From the sequence record PQ301181: a stretch of DNA of 64,000 nucleotides. One strand, written 5' to 3'. A program made the translations under genes and the position numbers. Position 1 is the first letter of the stretch. Each line of letters opens with the position of its first letter. A model generated the notes under the pieces. The model saw nothing but the letters and a program-made list of their open reading frames with translations. It searched no databases and was not told where the DNA came from. Source of the stretch: Escherichia phage EP02SG. Positions 8,750 through 35,645 of this stretch are shown one piece after another.

Positions 8750-9850
8750 TTACGCTGTGAAGATTTTATCCCACATCGCAACAACCGCATCTCGGTTATA
8801 CTTCTTCCATACTGCTTCAGCACGTTTAACTCGAGCTTCGTATGTGTCAGTGAATTCTAATACCGCTTTTGTGTAAAGCGCAACTACTTCTTTCTTAGGA
8901 GTAGAGGAATCAATTTCTACACGCACAGTATCCGGGTCATATTCGAATGTCGCGTGCGGATAATCCTTAAAAACTAACTGAATCACAGGGACACCTTTAG
9001 AGATGGCTTCAATAGAACTATTCTCTACCGTACCCGTGTCAGGACACGTATTGATAAGTGCTTTAGCTGTTTTAAGACGTTCCATGATTTCACTGTGTGG
9101 AGCATCAATAATAACAGGATACTTAGCCGGTGGTGCCCATTTACTAGGACAGTATCCTACACCATTTTCGCCTAGTGCTTTAATCGCTTCAAGAGCAACA
9201 TCAGTACGACGCATTTTAGTGTCATAACGTTGTGCACTAATAATCAGATCAGTCGCCGGAAGAACTTCAGGTTTCTCATTCAAACAAATAACCGGATAAT
9301 CTTCGGCTTCAAACAACGGATTTGCTCGCCAATAATCGTAATCAATTTTGTCAGTCAGACCTGAAGTCATATAACAATATTTGCGTTCAAATTCACGGAA
9401 GGCTTTAGTAGGAGCATAACTCTTACCACCATTCTTATGAATTTGAATAGTCTGGTCCCAAATTTGAACAATGCCACGAGATACCGGTTCAAATGGTGTT
9501 GCCATAAAATTCTTATGAACTTTAGAGAGACCTGCGTCTTTAATTGCCTGAACGGTTAGTTTAGTCGGTTCCATAGTAACAACAAAATCGTATTCATGGA
9601 TGCCGGCTAGTTCAACAATCTTACGAGCCATAGTATAACTCATACCTAGACTGAATTTAGTCAGATGACCAACAGGATGGTGTGTAACTTTCCAGTCACC
9701 AAACGTGTCATTATCAAAGCCGATATAATCAATATCAGCACCGATGGACACAAGATATTTCAACACATTTAAATGTACTGCTTCAAGGCCACCTTGTACG
9801 CGGTCAGGATTAAATGGGACTGCACGAGATGGGATAAACATAACTTTCAT
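8750..9850 (-). CDS. GT-B fold glycosyltransferase, putative DNA (hmC) glycosyl/arabinosyl-transferase
   Basis: 366-aa track ORF; C-terminal GTVENSSIEAISKGVPVIQL resembles the GT4/GT-B E-x7-E donor-binding motif; occupies the slot where T4 has gene 60 and mobA. Confidence 0.6.
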   Translation of the reverse strand: MKVMFIPSRAVPFNPDRVQGGLEAVHLNVLKYLVSIGADIDYIGFDNDTFGDWKVTHHPVGHLTKFSLGMSYTMARKIVELAGIHEYDFVVTMEPTKLTVQAIKDAGLSKVHKNFMATPFEPVSRGIVQIWDQTIQIHKNGGKSYAPTKAFREFERKYCYMTSGLTDKIDYDYWRANPLFEAEDYPVICLNEKPEVLPATDLIISAQRYDTKMRRTDVALEAIKALGENGVGYCPSKWAPPAKYPVIIDAPHSEIMERLKTAKALINTCPDTGTVENSSIEAISKGVPVIQLVFKDYPHATFEYDPDTVRVEIDSSTPKKEVVALYTKAVLEFTDTYEARVKRAEAVWKKYNRDAVVAMWDKIFTA

Positions 9851-21122: not shown

Positions 21123-21644
21123 TTAGTAACCTCGGTCTTGGCGGGAGAAGTTTTCAGCATTCTTCAAGTAATACAGTTTAAAGATTTCTTCAGCGGAAAG
21201 TCCCAGACCTTGGAACATATTCAGAACAAAGTGGAGGATATCAATCATCTCGAATTTAATTTCAAGCTGGTCTTCAGGAGACAGTTCATCGATACGACGA
21301 TTTCGATATTCAGCATGTTGTGCTTTCCATGGCTTCCATACAGAGCTAGCGGCTTTTTCACCATTGCTCATACCACCAAGTGAAGTCAGCAGTTCACGGA
21401 ATTCATCATCAATATAATCTTTCTGATTACGCAGCCAATCAACAACATCGCCAGCAGTGGCTAATTCATCAGGATGTTTGTTATGTTCAGGCTTGTCATT
21501 TGCCAGACGAACCTGTAAAGATTTCTGCATATCAAGCATTACCTGCAGAGGGTCTTTATCTTCGTGAATCAGGGCATTAAAATAAGCTTCTTCTGCTTTA
21601 TCAACACCAGAAATAAGTTGTGAACATTCGTTAAAGTGCGCCAT
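21123..21644 (-). CDS. 56: dCTP pyrophosphatase gp56 (dCTPase/dUTPase)
   Basis: Track ORF 21123..21659 trimmed to MAHFNECSQ; PLQVMLDMQ, ETAGDVV, DDEFRELLTSLG, FHFVLNMF, EEIFKLYYLKN match remembered T4 gp56. Confidence 0.85.
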   Translation of the reverse strand: MAHFNECSQLISGVDKAEEAYFNALIHEDKDPLQVMLDMQKSLQVRLANDKPEHNKHPDELATAGDVVDWLRNQKDYIDDEFRELLTSLGGMSNGEKAASSVWKPWKAQHAEYRNRRIDELSPEDQLEIKFEMIDILHFVLNMFQGLGLSAEEIFKLYYLKNAENFSRQDRGY

Positions 21645-21677
21645 TATTTTTCCTTTCAATTCAGTATAAGAGAAGTT

Positions 21678-28985: not shown

Positions 28986-29085
28986 TGTATTTTTCCATAG
29001 GCATCATTATATTTTACTCATGTTTAAAAGATAAGACGATTATATACTAAGGGTTATACAGCATTTAAAAACTTTAAACAGGCTC

Positions 29086-29634
29086 TTAACGAGCCCATTT
29101 GATAATTTCTGTAATCAAATAATTACGTTCGCTTGCATTAAATCCTATAACTTTGTTAGCACCGTCATGATTAAGTAATTGATACGTTTGGATTTTGTTA
29201 TGAATTGCAAACTCTTCAAAATATGAAATGACTGTATTAAAACCGAATGAAGACAAAGTAATAAGGTCGTCTTCAAAACTTTCAGTCATTTCGTTACGTG
29301 TTAAAATAATTGTGAACACATCATGGTTTTGGCAAAGACGAACATAATCCTGTTCATAAACATCAAGAACCGAGTCCGCATCTTGTCGAATACGTCCATA
29401 AACCCAGTTACTAATATATCCACGGTCTAACAGATAAATCTTAGTAGGGTCTAAATAATTCAACATCGTTTCGAAACAACCAACTTCATTTCGAGACTTA
29501 ACATCGAAACGTCCATCAACTGTTCGTTTAGGGAAATCAATCTTTACATATCTTTCACTAATTTCCATTATGTCATTAATGAAAGTTGTTTTACCAGCAT
29601 TATCCGGGCCATCTACTAAAATAATTTTAGCCAT
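29086..29634 (-). CDS. P-loop kinase (nucleoside/nucleotide or sugar kinase-like)
   Basis: 182-aa track ORF; Walker A GPDNAGKTT at N-terminus; start within 2 nt of upstream ORF stop. Confidence 0.55.
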   Translation of the reverse strand: MAKIILVDGPDNAGKTTFINDIMEISERYVKIDFPKRTVDGRFDVKSRNEVGCFETMLNYLDPTKIYLLDRGYISNWVYGRIRQDADSVLDVYEQDYVRLCQNHDVFTIILTRNEMTESFEDDLITLSSFGFNTVISYFEEFAIHNKIQTYQLLNHDGANKVIGFNASERNYLITEIIKWAR

Positions 29635-29635
29635 T

Positions 29636-30535
29636 TTATTCCTCGATTACGACATCTTCATATTTAGGTATATTATACGGCGAAGAAATTAAAGCATTAA
29701 AGTAGATGAACTCGCCAAGACCTGGATGGAATACTTCTTCAGGATTTTCGAAATATTGAATCTTCGGACGTCCTTTAAGAATTTGATAGTACTCAGTTTT
29801 AGTTGGATTAAAAATTCGAATCAGCGCTTCTTCAGGATACTTATTTCTGTCGAAACTATTATTTGGATCAGTTATATAAAGCGGTTGACCTAATTGAATT
29901 GCGCATTCAACCACTTGTTCAAAACGATAGCATGGGTCACTAATTCGAAATGGATGAAAAATACCATCTAGATGAATAGGAGCCAAATCACCTACAAGAC
30001 GCTGCATGACGGAAGGACGTATAACTTTCTGTGTTACGATAATCTTATTACCATCTGCACCTGCGTTAACCAGCACTTCTTTTTGACGTTCATTCAACAC
30101 AGTAGTTTGAAGTGAACGATTAACAGACAACATGTCGGTTTTTAAGAATTCATCAATATAAAAACGTGGTTTATTAGGGTCTGCAGTGATATTGAAATTG
30201 AATTCTACGTCAAAAGCGCCATCATATCCAGTGATATCTGTGATTAGAAAATCACAATCATAATAAGCAATTAATGAATCAACCACAAATTCATTTTCAG
30301 ACCAGAAATATTTACGAGTGTTATACGCGTTATCTTTATACCATAATGGAACAAACTTAAATTCCGGAAAAAGACGTTCGCATTCTTTAATATCAGATGC
30401 ATTACGTGGATATGTAATCACATCACCTGGATTAGCACGGTGCAAATGAAGTTGGAAGTTGCCATCCTTAAGGATAGCATACTGACCAGTTTCATAAGAC
30501 CGCATACTCAAGATAGGTACACGGAAAATAGCCAT
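29636..30535 (-). CDS. hypothetical protein (299 aa) at the T4 beta-gt position
   Basis: Track ORF; start overlaps gp42 stop at 30535; no recognisable resemblance to T4 beta-glucosyltransferase. Confidence 0.5.
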   Translation of the reverse strand: MAIFRVPILSMRSYETGQYAILKDGNFQLHLHRANPGDVITYPRNASDIKECERLFPEFKFVPLWYKDNAYNTRKYFWSENEFVVDSLIAYYDCDFLITDITGYDGAFDVEFNFNITADPNKPRFYIDEFLKTDMLSVNRSLQTTVLNERQKEVLVNAGADGNKIIVTQKVIRPSVMQRLVGDLAPIHLDGIFHPFRISDPCYRFEQVVECAIQLGQPLYITDPNNSFDRNKYPEEALIRIFNPTKTEYYQILKGRPKIQYFENPEEVFHPGLGEFIYFNALISSPYNIPKYEDVVIEE

Positions 30536-31251
30536 TAGTCAAGGAATCCTTTAACATAATCAAAATCACGTTCAAACACATGGGCACTTACCATGGTATG
30601 AGTATAATCACCAACTTCTACACCACATTCATTAGCGATATAATGAAGTAATTTTCCTTGGAGATAAAAATCCAACTGCATAACAACAGCACAGTTCTGA
30701 GAACGCATATGACAGTGGGTATAAAGCTTACCATCACGAATATAATAAGTCACTGAGTCAGTACATGGATATTCAAGTGTTTCGTCCGAATCAAGCAAAG
30801 CCTGATCTGAACTTTCTAGAATTTGGAACACAACTCTTCGGGAGTTAGGCTTCTCTTTAAGTTCTTTTAGAAGAGCTGGTAATTGGGCCGCAATGCGAGG
30901 ACCATAGAAAGTGTTGAAGTTCGCCGGCAAAACATCTGATTTTGGTTTAGAAATAAATTTAGCGACATTAGGATATGCCTTAAACGCTTCTTCTGCGTTG
31001 GTACCACCAGAAATCATAAACTTCCAGAAGTCTTCGGCATATTCATAAGAGATGCGGTTAATACGTGGGTCGGTCATTTTGAATGATGATGGAGTGTCAA
31101 CAACTACTGTCATAGACCCAATTTCATTACAACGTCCAATACGAGAATCAGTTACGAATTCCGGGTTTTCTAAAATTTCACGATTGACTGCTTTAAATGC
31201 GGTTTGAAAATCTGCGGCTTTAATATATTTCATTGTGTTATGTTTTCCCAT
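30535..31251 (-). CDS. 42: dCMP hydroxymethylase gp42 (thymidylate synthase family)
   Basis: 238-aa track ORF; TS-fold block PCTDSVTYYIRDGKLYTHCHMRSQNCAVVMQLDFYLQGKLLHYIANECGVEVGDYTHTMVSAHVF; length and position match gene 42 rather than td. Confidence 0.8.
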   Translation of the reverse strand: MGKHNTMKYIKAADFQTAFKAVNREILENPEFVTDSRIGRCNEIGSMTVVVDTPSSFKMTDPRINRISYEYAEDFWKFMISGGTNAEEAFKAYPNVAKFISKPKSDVLPANFNTFYGPRIAAQLPALLKELKEKPNSRRVVFQILESSDQALLDSDETLEYPCTDSVTYYIRDGKLYTHCHMRSQNCAVVMQLDFYLQGKLLHYIANECGVEVGDYTHTMVSAHVFERDFDYVKGFLD

Positions 31252-31269: not shown

Positions 31270-31295
31270 ATTATATACTCAATTCATAAAGCTTA
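31270..31295 (-). promoter_or_regulatory. possible MotA-type middle promoter upstream of gene 42
   Basis: rc: TAAGCTTTA - 11 nt - TATAAT then GAGGTAAAC SD and ATG at 31251; one mismatch to MotA box. Confidence 0.35.
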
Positions 31296-31374
31296 TTTGA
31301 ATTTCTTAGCGATGTTGATATAACGTAAAGCTTCAGCATCGATATTTCCAAGAACACTATGAAGAAATGCATCA

Positions 31375-31533
31375 GCGTAGTATTCTAGTTGAACAGGTTT
31401 CTTTAATCACTTTAGCCGCTTTAGTTTCAAACAGGCCCATAAGGGCCTTTTTAAGAATTTGTTCGTTGCTGTTAATTTTAATAGTCAAAATCTCTTCGTT
31501 AAGTTGGTGGTTAAAAGTTTTTCTAGAAATCAT
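31375..31533 (-). CDS. small hypothetical protein (about 52 aa)
   Basis: Hand-translated MISRKTFNHQLNEEIL...; ATGA overlap with stop of the 386-aa ORF; coordinates approximate. Confidence 0.25.
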
Positions 31534-32690
31534 TCTGGGTACCTCAAAGCGTCATCAGAGTTAGTTATATCAATAATAGATATAGAGTTTTCTGATAACC
31601 CATTTTTAGATAACTGACGTTTATAATATCTTTCACAATATGTACACGTCGTCCCACAGATTTCATTAGCACAATCGAAATCTGGATGTTTGAACCACCT
31701 TTTTTCTAAAAAGCCGTCTAACAAAGAGGTTTCAATATTTACCGTATGTGAAAACTCAGTCTCATTTTCAAGAGTGAAAATGGTCTCTAAAGGCTTCCAC
31801 AATTCCAACAAATTACCTTCAAACTTTTCAGAAGCGTAAGCTTCAAGAACTTTTAAAATGTAGTCGGTGCTACCTGTACGTCCTGAAACTTTAAATTGAG
31901 TGATACCAATATCATTATAAAGTTTCAAATCTTGAGGACGAACAAAACGAGTTCTCAACCAGTTAAATGGATCTGTATCACGAGCTTTAATACAGTGTTG
32001 CATTGGATATCCATTTAAAGATTTGGCATCATCTACTGTAACATCGGTGCTATGGAAAATATAGCAAGAGTCACGATAGCTACAATGTGTTGTATACCCT
32101 TTACCAGCATTAGAACAGAACTCATTTACAAGAACTTCAAATATTATATTGTTCTTATTGCAAAACTCTGCTGCACGCTTCAGGAAAGAAACTGAACGGT
32201 TCTTATGAATTCCACAACAGACCTTTTTGATATTATACTGGTCATGCAAGTATTTGATTTGAGTTACAGCATCAACATGTAGAATTGTTGAAACTTCAAT
32301 CTCAATGTCTTTATTGACTTCACGAACAATTTCCATAACAACAGGGTTAGCGATAGTAATACGCCATACGCCTATTGACCAAAGATACTGAACATAATCC
32401 TGAATAGCTTTCTTCTTCCACTCAACTAGTTCTCTTTTTGAACCAGGATTTATCGTGTTGAGTGTATAGTTAAAGCAAATACCTAATTCGTTACAACGTT
32501 TAACGTAATCTTCTAACATCTTTTTGTCAACGTCAGGAAGCCTAAAATCAGGTCTGGCTGCTACAAAAGCCATTTCTCTTGTAGAGCCGTATACTTCGTT
32601 TATCAAGCTATTAGGATAAGTTTTATTGAGCTCTACGATTTTATCAAGAAGAGCTAAATCAAAATTCGTTCCGATTTTAAAAGTATTCAT
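31530..32690 (-). CDS. Cys-rich putative metalloenzyme (386 aa), possibly TIM-barrel/Fe-S (peptidase U32-like?)
   Basis: Track ORF; Cys clusters NEFCSNAGKGYTTHCSYRDSCYIF and CANEICGTTCTYCERYY; family assignment uncertain. Confidence 0.5.
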   Translation of the reverse strand: MNTFKIGTNFDLALLDKIVELNKTYPNSLINEVYGSTREMAFVAARPDFRLPDVDKKMLEDYVKRCNELGICFNYTLNTINPGSKRELVEWKKKAIQDYVQYLWSIGVWRITIANPVVMEIVREVNKDIEIEVSTILHVDAVTQIKYLHDQYNIKKVCCGIHKNRSVSFLKRAAEFCNKNNIIFEVLVNEFCSNAGKGYTTHCSYRDSCYIFHSTDVTVDDAKSLNGYPMQHCIKARDTDPFNWLRTRFVRPQDLKLYNDIGITQFKVSGRTGSTDYILKVLEAYASEKFEGNLLELWKPLETIFTLENETEFSHTVNIETSLLDGFLEKRWFKHPDFDCANEICGTTCTYCERYYKRQLSKNGLSENSISIIDITNSDDALRYPE

Positions 32691-32753: not shown

Positions 32754-33140
32754 TTATAGATTCGGTTTATATGATTTAAATGTTTCGAATTCGCCTTTAT
32801 TCATAAGAGCTTTGAATTCGTCAGGACGCATAGCTTTGTCGTCGATAATCCAATCATATACTGGTTTATGTGTTAGCAAATTATGGTACTTCAATCCAAT
32901 GTTTGCCAAGTTCTGAATCAGACTTGGGAGAATGTCAATTGCTATACGACCAGGACCGACTGACTTCATACCGCGAGCAGTGTAAAGCGTTATGGTATGC
33001 CCTGCATCATACAGGGCATTAATGGCAGACACCATTTCGACGTCTGGTTTGAAGTTCACGTAATCACGATTGTTATTCCACTCTGTTATACAATCATCGA
33101 CATCAAAACAAAGATTAAGCATGTTTTCTACACGGTGCAT
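32754..33140 (-). CDS. HAD-superfamily sugar-phosphate phosphatase (KdsC-like)
   Basis: Track ORF 32754..33155 trimmed to MHRVEN (TAATG overlap with upstream stop); HAD motif I FDVDDCIT, motif II TLYTARG, motif IV WIIDDK. Confidence 0.55.
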   Translation of the reverse strand: MHRVENMLNLCFDVDDCITEWNNNRDYVNFKPDVEMVSAINALYDAGHTITLYTARGMKSVGPGRIAIDILPSLIQNLANIGLKYHNLLTHKPVYDWIIDDKAMRPDEFKALMNKGEFETFKSYKPNL

Positions 33141-34828
33141 TAGATTCGTTCCCATTGATGAGTGATATCGCCACCGATTGGACGATAAGAAACACCAGTT
33201 TCTTTATCAGTTAGTACCCATTTACCAGGATTTTTTGTAATCAGAGTAGCCGTTACAGGTTCTGCTACATCATAACTAATAGTGCCGTCCTGAAGTACAC
33301 GGCCCATGTTACGTAATTGCTTAGTCAGAAGTTCCATACCTTTATAATATGCGGCTACCGCTTTAAGTGGATTATTCTTGAAATAACCACCTAATGCAAT
33401 CCAGATAATTGCCACTGCCAAATGATGATACTCGTTAAACGAACTCATCTTTCCATATTTGTAAACTAACGGATTGATGTTAATAGTCACATTACAAGTT
33501 GTTTCATCAATAGTAAACTGTCCCCAAGTCGGATTAGCGTTGAATTCATCATAACCTGAAACAGCGTAAAGCACTTTAGCTTCATCATACAATTTTGGCC
33601 CATAAATCTTGGTTTCACCAAAATATCCACGAGGGTCGATAAACTTGACTTCACCATTATCAGTAATCATAGTATTACTGAAGTTCGGGTCACCATGAAT
33701 AACAGAGTACTGTCCCTGAGAACGGTTATGATAACGAATAAGGTGTTCTAAAGCTTGTTTCAACATTGGCTTCAGACGCCCAATCTTAGTGTAGTTCACA
33801 TGTGTGATTTTACCAAATGAATCAATCAATGGTTGAATACTTTCACAACGATCAATAACTTTAGTATAGAATTCTTTAGTGAAATCACGACGAACAGTTT
33901 CAGGACTTACAAAATAAGTGTCTGTGCTGAATTTCAGTGCATCTAAAATTGCATCAATAATTTGTGGACGAGCAAGACTTGATTTGGATTTAATATATTC
34001 AAATGCTGGCTTACCTTTAATACGTTCCATAATAAAGTGGCCGCCAGGATGATAACTTACAATCCGTGGAACTGAATCTGATTTAACTTTCTTATACCAA
34101 TTGACTTCATCTTTTTGAAGTGCAACGCCCTGTTCTGTTAAAGCAATCTTTGTTACCGTTTCTTCGCCAATTTCAACTGCATTAAAACTACGATTAAGTT
34201 CACGAACTTCATGAGCTTTTTCAAGTTTAGGCATATCACCAAGATCGATGATATTCATAAGCTCTGATTTATTGAATGCGCTGCCGTAAAGGAATTCTAC
34301 GAAATCACGTCCTTTGCAGTATTCATGAATTTCCTCATCAGTAGAACCCATATAGAATTCCCAGTCTTTGAACTGATAAATTCCTACAACATTACCACCT
34401 GTTGAACCTACATTAGTGATATTTTCACCGTCGAAATTATATCGACATTCGTCACCCTTAACATAGATTGCGTTAACATTCCAAGACCACGAACCAAAAT
34501 CAGGAATAATATCACACCAGTTAACAATTACATTATGGCCGTCTAAATCTTTGTGCAATTTAGCAAGAGCATAAGCAGAACCATACGCTTCATCAACTGT
34601 ACGAATAGTCACATTGAACCCTTCTTGCTCACAATAAGCTCGAACAGTTTCAGCAAATTTTGAATGAACTACTACAATAATTTCATCTGCGCCAAGGTCA
34701 GAATAAATTGTATACAAATTGCTCAGAATAGTGTCTTGTTTATAGTTAACAAGCACCTTAGGAATATGATGCGTTATTGGATACAAACGAGTTGCCAGTC
34801 CAGCACCAAGAATAACAGCTTTTTTCAT
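33140..34828 (-). CDS. bifunctional sugar-1-phosphate nucleotidyltransferase / sugar kinase
   Basis: 562-aa track ORF; N-term MKKAVILGAGLATRLYPIT..PKVLV (RmlA/GalU-type NTP-transferase); C-term HGDPNFSNTMI...FIDPRG (APH/choline-kinase Brenner motif); TGAGGA SD. Confidence 0.65.
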   Translation of the reverse strand: MKKAVILGAGLATRLYPITHHIPKVLVNYKQDTILSNLYTIYSDLGADEIIVVVHSKFAETVRAYCEQEGFNVTIRTVDEAYGSAYALAKLHKDLDGHNVIVNWCDIIPDFGSWSWNVNAIYVKGDECRYNFDGENITNVGSTGGNVVGIYQFKDWEFYMGSTDEEIHEYCKGRDFVEFLYGSAFNKSELMNIIDLGDMPKLEKAHEVRELNRSFNAVEIGEETVTKIALTEQGVALQKDEVNWYKKVKSDSVPRIVSYHPGGHFIMERIKGKPAFEYIKSKSSLARPQIIDAILDALKFSTDTYFVSPETVRRDFTKEFYTKVIDRCESIQPLIDSFGKITHVNYTKIGRLKPMLKQALEHLIRYHNRSQGQYSVIHGDPNFSNTMITDNGEVKFIDPRGYFGETKIYGPKLYDEAKVLYAVSGYDEFNANPTWGQFTIDETTCNVTININPLVYKYGKMSSFNEYHHLAVAIIWIALGGYFKNNPLKAVAAYYKGMELLTKQLRNMGRVLQDGTISYDVAEPVTATLITKNPGKWVLTDKETGVSYRPIGGDITHQWERI

Positions 34829-34869: not shown

Positions 34870-35013
34870 CTAGTTAAAGCATTCATACTTTGCTTGTAGT
34901 CCAATCATAATCCATCCGATTATAAGAGTCGGAATCATTACTGGAGCCGTTAAGCTCCAGTAGATAGTCATGACAAGCATCAATAGTAAAAGTCCTATTG
35001 TTATTGCTTTCAT
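34870..35013 (-). CDS. small membrane protein (about 47 aa)
   Basis: Hand-translated MKAITIGLLLLMLVMTIYWSLTAPVMIPTLIIGWIMIGLQAKYECFN; ATGA overlap with stop of the SIS-domain gene. Confidence 0.3.
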   Translation of the reverse strand: MKAITIGLLLLMLVMTIYWSLTAPVMIPTLIIGWIMIGLQAKYECFN

Positions 35014-35645
35014 TGTTCGCCTCGTAACATGGCACCTAGTGCACCGCCGGGGTGGAACTTAAGGAAGTCATTAGAGGTAAATCCACGTTCAGACGAAAGG
35101 TTGATAGCAAACGTATCGATAAGCGCTAACAACAATGTAGTGGACATGGTCGGAGCCAGAGAATTCTCATCAACCTCTACTGCGATGCCTGTACAGAACG
35201 TATAATCAAAAAGAGCTTCGTATTCTTGTGGAATGTCCGGGTTACAATGCAACAGAATCTGTTTGACGTTCGGACGAATCATTTTAAGATGCTTAGCCAC
35301 GCCTATCATTTCTTCAGTTTTACCAGAACGACTAATATGAATCAACACATCATTAGGCGCAATGAATCCTGCATCACCGTGAGAATAATGCCCAGTGTTC
35401 AAGTACATACTCGGGATACCGAGTGAAGCAAATGTCTCAGAAGCTTTAGTTGCAATATTAGCATTCTTACCAACACCTGTAATAATTACTCGGCTTTCAT
35501 AATTACTAAGTCCTGGGCGTCGAAGAGTTTCTAGAATAGCATTATAACGAGCAGGGTTTTGACTAATTACTTTGGCCATAGCGGCCAAAGAAGAAGCTTG
35601 TTTTATGATTGCGTCAATAGCGATAGTAATAGGAGTAGTTTTCAT
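35010..35645 (-). CDS. SIS-domain sugar-phosphate isomerase, arabinose-5-phosphate isomerase (KdsD/GutQ/KpsF)-like
   Basis: 211-aa track ORF; ITGVGKNANIATKASETFASLGIPS...HGDAGFI...VLIHISRSGKTEE...LAPTMSTTLLLALIDTF...FHPGGALG match SIS/API signature; no CBS domains. Confidence 0.7.
   Translation of the reverse strand: MKTTPITIAIDAIIKQASSLAAMAKVISQNPARYNAILETLRRPGLSNYESRVIITGVGKNANIATKASETFASLGIPSMYLNTGHYSHGDAGFIAPNDVLIHISRSGKTEEMIGVAKHLKMIRPNVKQILLHCNPDIPQEYEALFDYTFCTGIAVEVDENSLAPTMSTTLLLALIDTFAINLSSERGFTSNDFLKFHPGGALGAMLRGEQ

Follow-up and report, generated by a model that had tools for sequence, protein, structure and literature searches.

In this study, we analysed the gene at 29636..30535 on the minus strand of a 64,000-nucleotide stretch of Escherichia phage EP02SG (sequence record PQ301181; the whole stretch is called the window below), whose 299-residue product is predicted to adopt the GT-B fold of glycosyltransferases and is termed GT1 here. 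With a probability of roughly 0.78, we consider GT1 to be the base-proximal glycosyltransferase of the DNA modification pathway, which would transfer arabinofuranose from UDP-arabinose to the 5-hydroxyl of 5-hydroxycytosine (5hoC); donor, acceptor and the transfer by GT1 are what we infer from the evidence given below.

The GT1 gene and its neighbours

The open reading frame (ORF) list of the window gives GT1 as an ATG-initiated frame of 299 codons that covers exactly 29636..30535. At the junction with the upstream gene (30535..31251), the minus strand reads TAATG, with stop TAA and start ATG sharing one base, and at the junction with the downstream kinase gene (29086..29634) it reads TAA-A-ATG, leaving one base between the GT1 stop and the kinase start. 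Both the overlap and the abutting start had been recognized in an initial annotation of the window, which did not give the strand. A GAGGA Shine-Dalgarno sequence for the kinase gene lies inside the last codons at the 3' end of GT1. A pattern scan additionally found a terminator-like hairpin at 29076..29100 on the minus strand, which has a 10-bp stem with a T-run after it and lies where the kinase gene ends. This element is likely the 3' end of the transcription unit, and the number of such hairpins in the scan was not above that in shuffles, making it suggestive only. A scan for sigma-70 promoters gave sites no more numerous than in shuffled sequence. Upstream of the gene at 30535..31251, we noticed by eye the arrangement AGCTTTA, 11 nt, TATAAT (31270..31293, minus strand), which is absent from the sigma-70 scan output and resembles what we take to be the layout of a T4 MotA-dependent middle promoter, with a MotA box ~12 bp upstream of the -10 element.

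In the window, the genes are ordered 41-40-uvsX-kinase-GT1-thymidylate synthase (TS) homologue, compared with 41-40-uvsX-segA-beta-gt-42-imm-43 in T4. GT1 and the kinase together fill the T4 beta-gt slot, between the gene 42 TS homologue and uvsX, and comparison with the T4 locus thus bears out the earlier placement of GT1 at this position.

The window belongs to an RB69-like Mosigvirus: about 150 Mosigvirus genomes, JS09, HY126, ST0 and Shf125875 among them, match the 6-kb region around GT1 at 97–98% identity. The ORF is a real gene, since more than 150 Mosigvirus genomes encode identical or near-identical proteins and about 350 phage records contain homologues; in several Mosigvirus genomes, the protein is 100% identical to GT1. 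In RB69, the counterpart is split: tblastn against AY303349 aligned residues 1–299 with ORF046c and ORF047c in two pieces at 98.7% identity, and a Foldseek search of BFVD likewise matched RB69ORF047c and ORF046c at 98% identity. The match in AY303349.1 (24600..25497) has 898 bases for 299 codons, with a one-base frameshift that divides the gene into ORF046c and ORF047c. All other Mosigvirus records listed have the gene intact, which fits a sequencing error in AY303349.1, and Lee et al. likewise put the split down to such an error (PMC13326640). Apart from this split, we see no substantive difference between GT1 and RB69 gp46:47 or DLP3 gp79. In Shewanella phage Thanatos, TH1_063 is 48% identical to GT1 over the full length and stands in the same order of TS homologue, glycosyltransferase and kinase, with overlapping boundaries.

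Lee et al. (Nucleic Acids Res 2026, PMC13326640) predicted RB69 gp46:47 (ORF046c+047c) to be "arabinosyltransferase 1", and TH1_063 has been assayed, so that GT1 can no longer be called an unknown protein, as it had been in the initial annotation. Identity and predicted role of GT1 are already known through RB69 gp46:47; the finding is real, but not new.

The gene directly upstream (30535..31251, minus strand) encodes a TS homologue of 238 residues (Pfam Thymidylat_synt, E 2e-15), whose product is ~98% identical to PDB entries 9iqc, 9ir2 and 9iqu (E 8e-161). Aligned in E. coli ThyA numbering, it carries Asn at position 169 and Asp at position 177; T4 gp42 and E. coli ThyA have Asp at 169. The combination of Asn169 and Asp177 is common to the TS homologues of the window, of Thanatos and of a distant metagenomic phage (L005). 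Asp177 is the cytosine-specifying residue shared with gp42, and RB69 gp48 and relatives with the D169N signature are flavin-dependent and make 5-hydroxy-dCMP (5hodCMP) (Lee et al., PMC13326640). The initial annotation had taken this gene for the hydroxymethylase gp42. Because of Asn at ThyA 169, the ~98% identity to 9iqc and the function shown for RB69 gp48, we instead regard it, as judged from its sequence, as a flavin-dependent dCMP 5-hydroxylase (5hodCMP synthase), whose homology to gp42 is one of family and position only. Likewise, the DNA base is arabinosyl-5-hydroxycytosine and no derivative of hydroxymethylcytosine; the DNA of RB69 and DLP3 contains mono-, di- or tri-arabinosylated 5hoC and not arabinosyl-hydroxymethylcytosine, as was first thought (PMC13326640). 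In two distant metagenomic phages, a Flavodoxin_2 gene (NAD(P)H-dependent flavin reductase-like; L005:6739-7293 and L003:605-1123) lies beside or near the hydroxylase-type TS homologue, and could plausibly supply reduced flavin to the flavin-dependent dCMP hydroxylase.

Fold and conserved residues of GT1

GT1 has no Pfam match at E <= 1 and belongs to no NCBIfam family. Searches of PDB sequences with the single sequence or a 76-sequence profile returned no glycosyltransferase, only a designed minibinder at E 0.2 that we take as chance. The only PHROG match is the unannotated phrog_3891, and no precomputed Pfam domain is found on any of 120 listed homologues. When 1.84 billion cluster representatives were searched exhaustively with the family profile, only 231 proteins came up, with no spill into GT4. 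By the measure of these searches, GT1 is a small, sequence-isolated phage family.

The AlphaFold2 model of GT1, built from the 76-sequence alignment (predicted local distance difference test score 95.7, predicted TM-score 0.90), consists of two alternating strand/helix halves, and the modelled fold is GT-B, with two Rossmann-like beta/alpha/beta domains. Foldseek matched the model to MshA and BGluT at E 2e-6 and to many UDP-GlcNAc 2-epimerases at E ~1e-5, which share the GT-B architecture. These results independently reproduce those of Lee et al. for RB69 gp46:47 (PMC13326640). Fold prediction, which had been proposed as a check together with the initial annotation, is therefore in line with the sugar transferase candidate named there.

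Among catalogued enzymes, the retaining GT-B glycosyltransferases of CAZy family GT4 (sucrose-phosphate synthase 6kih, BshA, MshA, PimA, HepE) are alike in their two-Rossmann-domain structure, with 245–267 residues superposable at 3.0–3.4 A. The likeness extends to a basic residue after the first strand of the C-terminal domain and to an acidic residue in the helix where GT4 has the second Glu of EX7E. In contrast, identity amounts to 7–12%, there is no match to Pfam Glycos_transf_1, GT1 is 40–100 residues shorter, and the first EX7E Glu is replaced in the GT1 family by an invariant His-Pro-Gly. The acceptors differ as well, being a modified nucleobase for GT1 (predicted) and a sugar, lipid or thiol precursor for GT4. 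GT1 as modelled thus resembles a GT4-type retaining GT-B enzyme in fold, but falls outside GT4 in sequence-based membership tests.

With the T4 beta-glucosyltransferase (GT63) and alpha-glucosyltransferase (GT72), GT1 shares the genomic slot and the fold class. The T4 enzymes transfer glucose and GT1 would transfer arabinofuranose; the T4 acceptor hydroxyl is attached through a methylene group (5-hydroxymethylcytosine), that predicted for GT1 sits directly on C5 (5hoC). T4 beta-glucosyltransferase is basic (isoelectric point, pI, 9.05) and GT1 is acidic (pI 5.05). Comparison of the family profile with T4 beta-gt by hhalign gave a probability of 0.3%, on which orthology was rejected, in agreement with the earlier remark that the two do not look alike.

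Conservation was counted in the 76-sequence family alignment, whose members are 36–75% identical to GT1. Invariant or nearly so are R12, K23-D24-G25-N26, R33, R74 and N148 in the N-terminal half and R197, D200, Y203, T222-D223-P224-N225 (D223 in 75/76), K246 and H270-P271-G272 in the C-terminal half; all 76 sequences have Glu or Asp at position 275. In the model, R197 follows strand 1 of the C-terminal domain, K246 lies at the start of a helix and position 275 inside helix 271–278. Going by position in the GT-B topology only, R197 and K246 are candidate diphosphate binders, the acidic residue 275 is a candidate ribose binder, and H270-P271-G272 are candidate donor-site residues.

This pattern points to an active enzyme, as far as sequence conservation can indicate. 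We find it hardly credible that GT1 is instead a catalytically inactive scaffold linking hydroxylase and kinase in a nucleotide-synthesis complex. The translational coupling to both neighbours would suit such a part, and degenerate family members exist, such as the Muldoon homologue, in which most conserved residues are lost; but ~25 residues, most of them polar or charged, are invariant and group where the active-site cleft of GT-B enzymes is typically found, which speaks for selection on catalysis.

The homologue just mentioned, gp038 of Serratia phage Muldoon (NC_049464; L062:4501-5427), is a distant relative of GT1 (hhalign 99.4%, E 1e-21; BFVD TMq 0.75). The gene directly upstream of it encodes a TS homologue of hydroxymethylase type (Asp at ThyA 169; 60% identity to T4 gp42), and it is itself upstream of genes annotated as beta-alpha-gt as well as beta-gt. 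Among the invariant residues lost from it are MRS, KDGN, R74, R197, TDPN and HPG. In a hydroxymethylcytosine phage, this gene may be a relic that has degenerated or been re-purposed.

Genomic linkage and the order of sugar addition

For comparative genomics, 56 related loci were taken from viral contigs, and homologues of the pathway genes of the window were located in each. In 51 of these loci there is room for an upstream TS homologue; 44 have one directly upstream of GT1 on the same strand, and 50 have one within 7 kb. The linkage is kept in metagenomic phages at ~37% identity, where the ORFs overlap again and a Flavodoxin_2 gene stands beside the hydroxylase, and also in Rhizobium and Sinorhizobium phage loci that are 25–28% identical to GT1. 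In Rhizobium phages the base-proximal sugar is galactose, and gp215 of RL38J1, which is flanked by the nucleotide kinase gp214 and the hydroxylase gp216, was named galactosyltransferase 1 (Lee et al., PMC13326640). From its position by the hydroxylase, we take gp215 (Rhizobium phages, Pootjesviridae) to correspond to the compared loci of 25–28% identity and thus to be a distant member of the same family with galactose as proximal sugar. Because the linkage to the hydroxylase also holds in these galactose-type phages, the GT1 family follows the acceptor, 5hoC, and not the sugar.

This observation weighs on a further alternative, which would make GT1 an enzyme of GT-B/epimerase-type fold that modifies the nucleotide sugar itself, either UDP-sugar 2-epimerase-like or pyranose/furanose-converting. 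The many UDP-GlcNAc 2-epimerases among the Foldseek matches at ~1e-5 would agree with such an activity, as would the 2-epimerases among the top matches of RL38J1 gp215 in Lee et al. (PMC13326640). However, GT1 has no match to Pfam Epimerase_2, its family tracks the hydroxylase and not the sugar, the galactose-type Rhizobium phages have their own UDP-galactopyranose mutase, and phages lacking the second glycosyltransferase described below would be left with no transferase. We therefore regard this activity as very unlikely.

A thymidylate kinase (TMPK)-like kinase gene follows immediately downstream of GT1 in 31 of 52 loci and is found elsewhere in the cluster in 11 more. Some metagenomic proteins are fusions, either of GT1 with a C-terminal TMPK-like domain (P0230, P0258) or of an N-terminal HAD-like domain with GT1 (P0139, P0221). 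The kinase domain of the former matches Pfam Thymidylate_kin at E 1.2e-4, below the cut-off, and the HAD-like domain of the latter has a DxDG motif. BLASTP of the fusion kinase against the window kinase aligned the P-loop and an 'R..IS..VY' motif only and hhalign gave 5–17%, by which orthology is not established; nor did the comparison establish orthology of the HAD-like domain to the HAD gene of the window. The partner in the GT1-kinase fusions is a TMPK-like P-loop kinase, and we claim nothing narrower for it.

A second glycosyltransferase, GT2, is encoded at 8750..9850 on the minus strand. It is the orthologue of RB69 gp3, essentially identical to the 'phage HY126 glycosyltransferase' in PDB entries 9iqz and 9ir0 (E 5e-251), and predicted to add the second arabinose. 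GT1 and GT2 show no sequence similarity (BLASTP E 2), and paralogy of the two was rejected at the sequence level on this value. The phage records with GT1 come from many host genera, among them Klebsiella, Serratia, Enterobacter, Proteus and Yersinia. For GT2 there are 211 records, which are only Mosigvirus-type coliphages with one copy and Acinetobacter phages with two; no Shewanella phage record, and hence not Thanatos, was among the GT2 matches. DNA is di-arabinosylated in RB69, tri-arabinosylated in DLP3 and mono-arabinosylated in Thanatos (PMC13326640). Copy numbers of GT2 of 0, 1 and 2 therefore track mono-, di- and tri-arabinosyl DNA, and the GT1 orthologue is the only gene with a glycosyltransferase fold in Thanatos. 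In DLP3, addition of the third, distal arabinose to DNA was shown for the GT2-type proteins gp76 and gp77 (PMC13326640). Based on the phyletic distribution of GT1 and GT2 and on the distal activity of gp76 and gp77, we assign the first sugar to GT1 and the extension to GT2. Of the suggestion in the initial annotation that GT1 is a second DNA sugar transferase, the DNA sugar transferase is thus supported by the GT-B fold and by comparative genomics; "second" does not apply, since GT1 most likely acts first and the second glycosyltransferase is the one at 8750..9850.

The roles could also be swapped, with GT2 installing the first arabinose and GT1 extending the chain. GT2 (ORF003c) had been proposed as arabinosyltransferase by Thomas et al. 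2018, its orthologue was crystallised with UDP by He et al. (PDB 9iqz, 9ir0), and the GT1 orthologue showed no activity on 5hoC-DNA. This arrangement has little chance of being correct, given that many phage genera have GT1 but no GT2, as does the mono-arabinosylated Thanatos, that GT2 copy number follows arabinose chain length and that gp76 and gp77 of DLP3 attach a distal arabinose to previously arabinosylated DNA. Bas46 remains viable when the arabinosyltransferase Aat is deleted, with altered sensitivity to defences, as would suit an accessory extender if Aat, as we presume, is of GT2 type.

The arabinosylation pathway and the place of GT1 in it

We propose the following pathway. A dCTPase-like NTP pyrophosphohydrolase of gp56 type (21123..21659, minus strand; phrog_173, 2e-45) would remove dCTP and supply dCMP, which the TS-fold flavin-dependent hydroxylase would convert into 5hodCMP. 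This nucleotide would be phosphorylated and then incorporated into DNA; in RB69, the gp1-type dNMP kinase does the first phosphorylation of 5hodCMP, and 5hodC enters DNA (PMC13326640). UDP-arabinofuranose would be made from ribulose-5-phosphate by an isomerase, a bifunctional kinase/pyrophosphorylase and a HAD phosphatase encoded just upstream of GT1. GT1 would then move the first arabinose onto the 5-hydroxyl of 5hoC, and GT2 (8750..9850) would add the second, giving the di-arabinoside. The reported alpha linkage of the proximal arabinose would fit retention, given an alpha-linked donor; the structural neighbours of GT1 are retaining enzymes.

The three genes for the donor lie on the minus strand. 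The isomerase is the SIS-domain arabinose-5-phosphate isomerase at 35010..35645, an orthologue of RB69 gp55 (Pfam SIS, 2e-10; phrog_5670 arabinose 5-phosphate isomerase, 2e-116). The gene at 33140..34828 encodes a 562-residue bifunctional sugar kinase/UDP-arabinose pyrophosphorylase, orthologous to AfhE/RB69 gp52:53 (Pfam NTP_transferase, 1e-9), with weaker matches to APH-like kinases (Fructosamin_kin, APH) at E ~4e-3, below curated cut-offs. UDP-D-arabinose pyrophosphorylase activity was reported for AfhE of HY126 (as summarised in PMC13326640). The HAD-type phosphatase at 32754..33155 is orthologous to AfhF/RB69 gp51 (NCBIfam EcbF-BcbF phosphatase, 4e-13), an arabinose-1,5-bisphosphate 5-phosphatase (as summarised in PMC13326640).

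The kinase downstream of GT1 (29086..29634, minus strand) is a TMPK-like P-loop nucleotide kinase of 182 residues, orthologous to RB69 gp45 (phrog_761 thymidylate kinase, 6e-45). Its identity is 44% to Thanatos TH1_064 and 28–30% to the downstream, overlapping genes of L003 and L005. Its P-loop reads VDGPDNAGKTT, and by eye the motif LLDRGYISNWVYG resembles the DRY-type NMP-binding motif of TMPK.

Two further genes lie in the same cluster, again on the minus strand. A peptidase-U32-like protein, orthologous to RB69 gp50, is encoded at 31530..32690 (Pfam Peptidase_U32, 6e-11; phrog_5757), and this gene co-occurs in many, not all, GT1 clusters. In three IMG/VR contigs (L052, L054, L057), distant GT1-like genes of 26–27% identity have no TS homologue within 7 kb and a peptidase-U32-like gene immediately downstream in each, which hints at a functional tie between the glycosyltransferase and the U32-like protein. 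The 53-residue ORF at 31372..31533, between the U32-like gene and the hydroxylase gene, belongs to the conserved phage family phrog_8601 (E 7e-28) and is probably a real small gene within the modification cluster.

Several points weigh against the assignment of GT1 as arabinosyltransferase. Transferase activity is not demonstrated for any family member in the accessible literature, which does not extend to He et al. 2026 or Mahler et al. 2025, both possible sources of direct data. Individual glycosyltransferases including DLP3 gp79 gave no arabinosylation of 5hoC-DNA with UDP-arabinofuranose or UDP-arabinopyranose (data not shown; PMC13326640). TH1_063 transferred no xylose to plasmid DNA, dCMP, dCTP or cytosine, and made UDP-xylose from UTP and xylose-1-phosphate in vitro, as detected by liquid chromatography-tandem mass spectrometry (Brandt et al., AEM 2025, PMC12838424); the negative transfer result is uninformative, because the tested acceptors lack the 5-hydroxyl. 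Searches of Pfam, NCBIfam and PDB profiles linked GT1 in sequence to no glycosyltransferase family. The first Glu of the GT4 EX7E motif is not conserved: GT1 itself has E267-x7-E275, but position 267 is mostly Lys or Thr across the family. Finally, the family is acidic, with a median pI of 5.25 and 0 of 76 members above pI 8, compared with 9.05 for the DNA-binding T4 beta-glucosyltransferase. Charge is weak evidence against DNA binding, since GT2, with a pI of 6.3, is slightly acidic as well and enzymes of its type act on DNA.

The Thanatos data led to a model for TH1_063 under which GT1 would be a UDP-pentose pyrophosphorylase (sugar-1-phosphate uridylyltransferase) and another protein would carry out the transfer. 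TH1_063 is an orthologue with the same neighbours, and it formed UDP-xylose, whereas no product was obtained with TH1_060, an NTP_transferase protein that had been purified alongside it (PMC12838424). The legend of the assay figure, on the other hand, gives a no-enzyme control only (PMC12838424). The reported activity is at odds with the GT-B fold and with a separate pyrophosphorylase in the cluster: GT1 has no NTP_transferase match in Pfam, and the window has a distinct NTP_transferase protein at 33140..34828, whose orthologue AfhE is the one reported as UDP-D-arabinose pyrophosphorylase. It would moreover leave the mono-arabinosylated Thanatos without any transferase of glycosyltransferase fold. 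Nucleotidyl transfer is also hard to reconcile with a GT-B fold; to our knowledge, nucleotidyl transfer at the alpha-phosphate of UTP is not a known GT-B reaction. We thus hold a pyrophosphorylase to be improbable. In favour of GT1 as a transferase, AfhE, an NTP_transferase protein, already has the pyrophosphorylase step assigned to it, and the HAD-GT1 and GT1-TMPK-like fusions indicate pathway membership. The sugar-modifying enzyme and the nucleotide-handling protein, offered as further roles in the initial annotation, are not favoured.

A separate question is whether the arabinosyltransferase GT1 would act on DNA or on a mononucleotide, between which the data of Lee et al. do not distinguish for the first arabinosylation (PMC13326640). 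In the conventional model, the acceptor would be 5hoC in replicated DNA. In the other model, the first arabinose would be added before replication: GT1 would convert 5hodCMP to arabinosyl-5hodCMP, the TMPK-like kinase would phosphorylate this bulky nucleotide, the polymerase would incorporate a pre-glycosylated dCTP analogue, and only the extension by GT2 would take place on DNA. Several findings lean weakly to this side, none of them decisively. GT1 sits between and is translationally coupled to two mononucleotide enzymes, and the cluster keeps a second nucleotide kinase although a gp1-type dNMP kinase handles 5hodCMP. In distant phages, too, the ORFs of glycosyltransferase and kinase overlap, and some proteins are fusions of the two; GT1 family members are acidic throughout, and the DLP3 orthologue was inactive on 5hoC-DNA. 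Against it stand the mildly acidic GT2, whose relatives nevertheless act on DNA, and the HAD-GT1 fusions, by which fusion may reflect a shared pathway only. All in all, we consider glycosylation at the nucleotide level doubtful. If true, it would overturn the general rule that sugars are added to phage DNA after replication.

With identity and predicted role of GT1 already published, its annotation in the window adds little. The remaining interest lies in biochemical proof for GT1, in the conflicting pyrophosphorylase report and in whether glycosylation starts on the nucleotide or on DNA. GT1 is the founding member of a small GT-B family that has no sequence link to the catalogued glycosyltransferases. 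Arabinosyl-5-hydroxycytosine shields Mosigvirus-type phages, which are common candidates for phage therapy, from restriction enzymes, DNA glycosylases and some CRISPR systems, and the enzyme that attaches the first sugar, as predicted here for GT1, carries out the committed step of this DNA protection.

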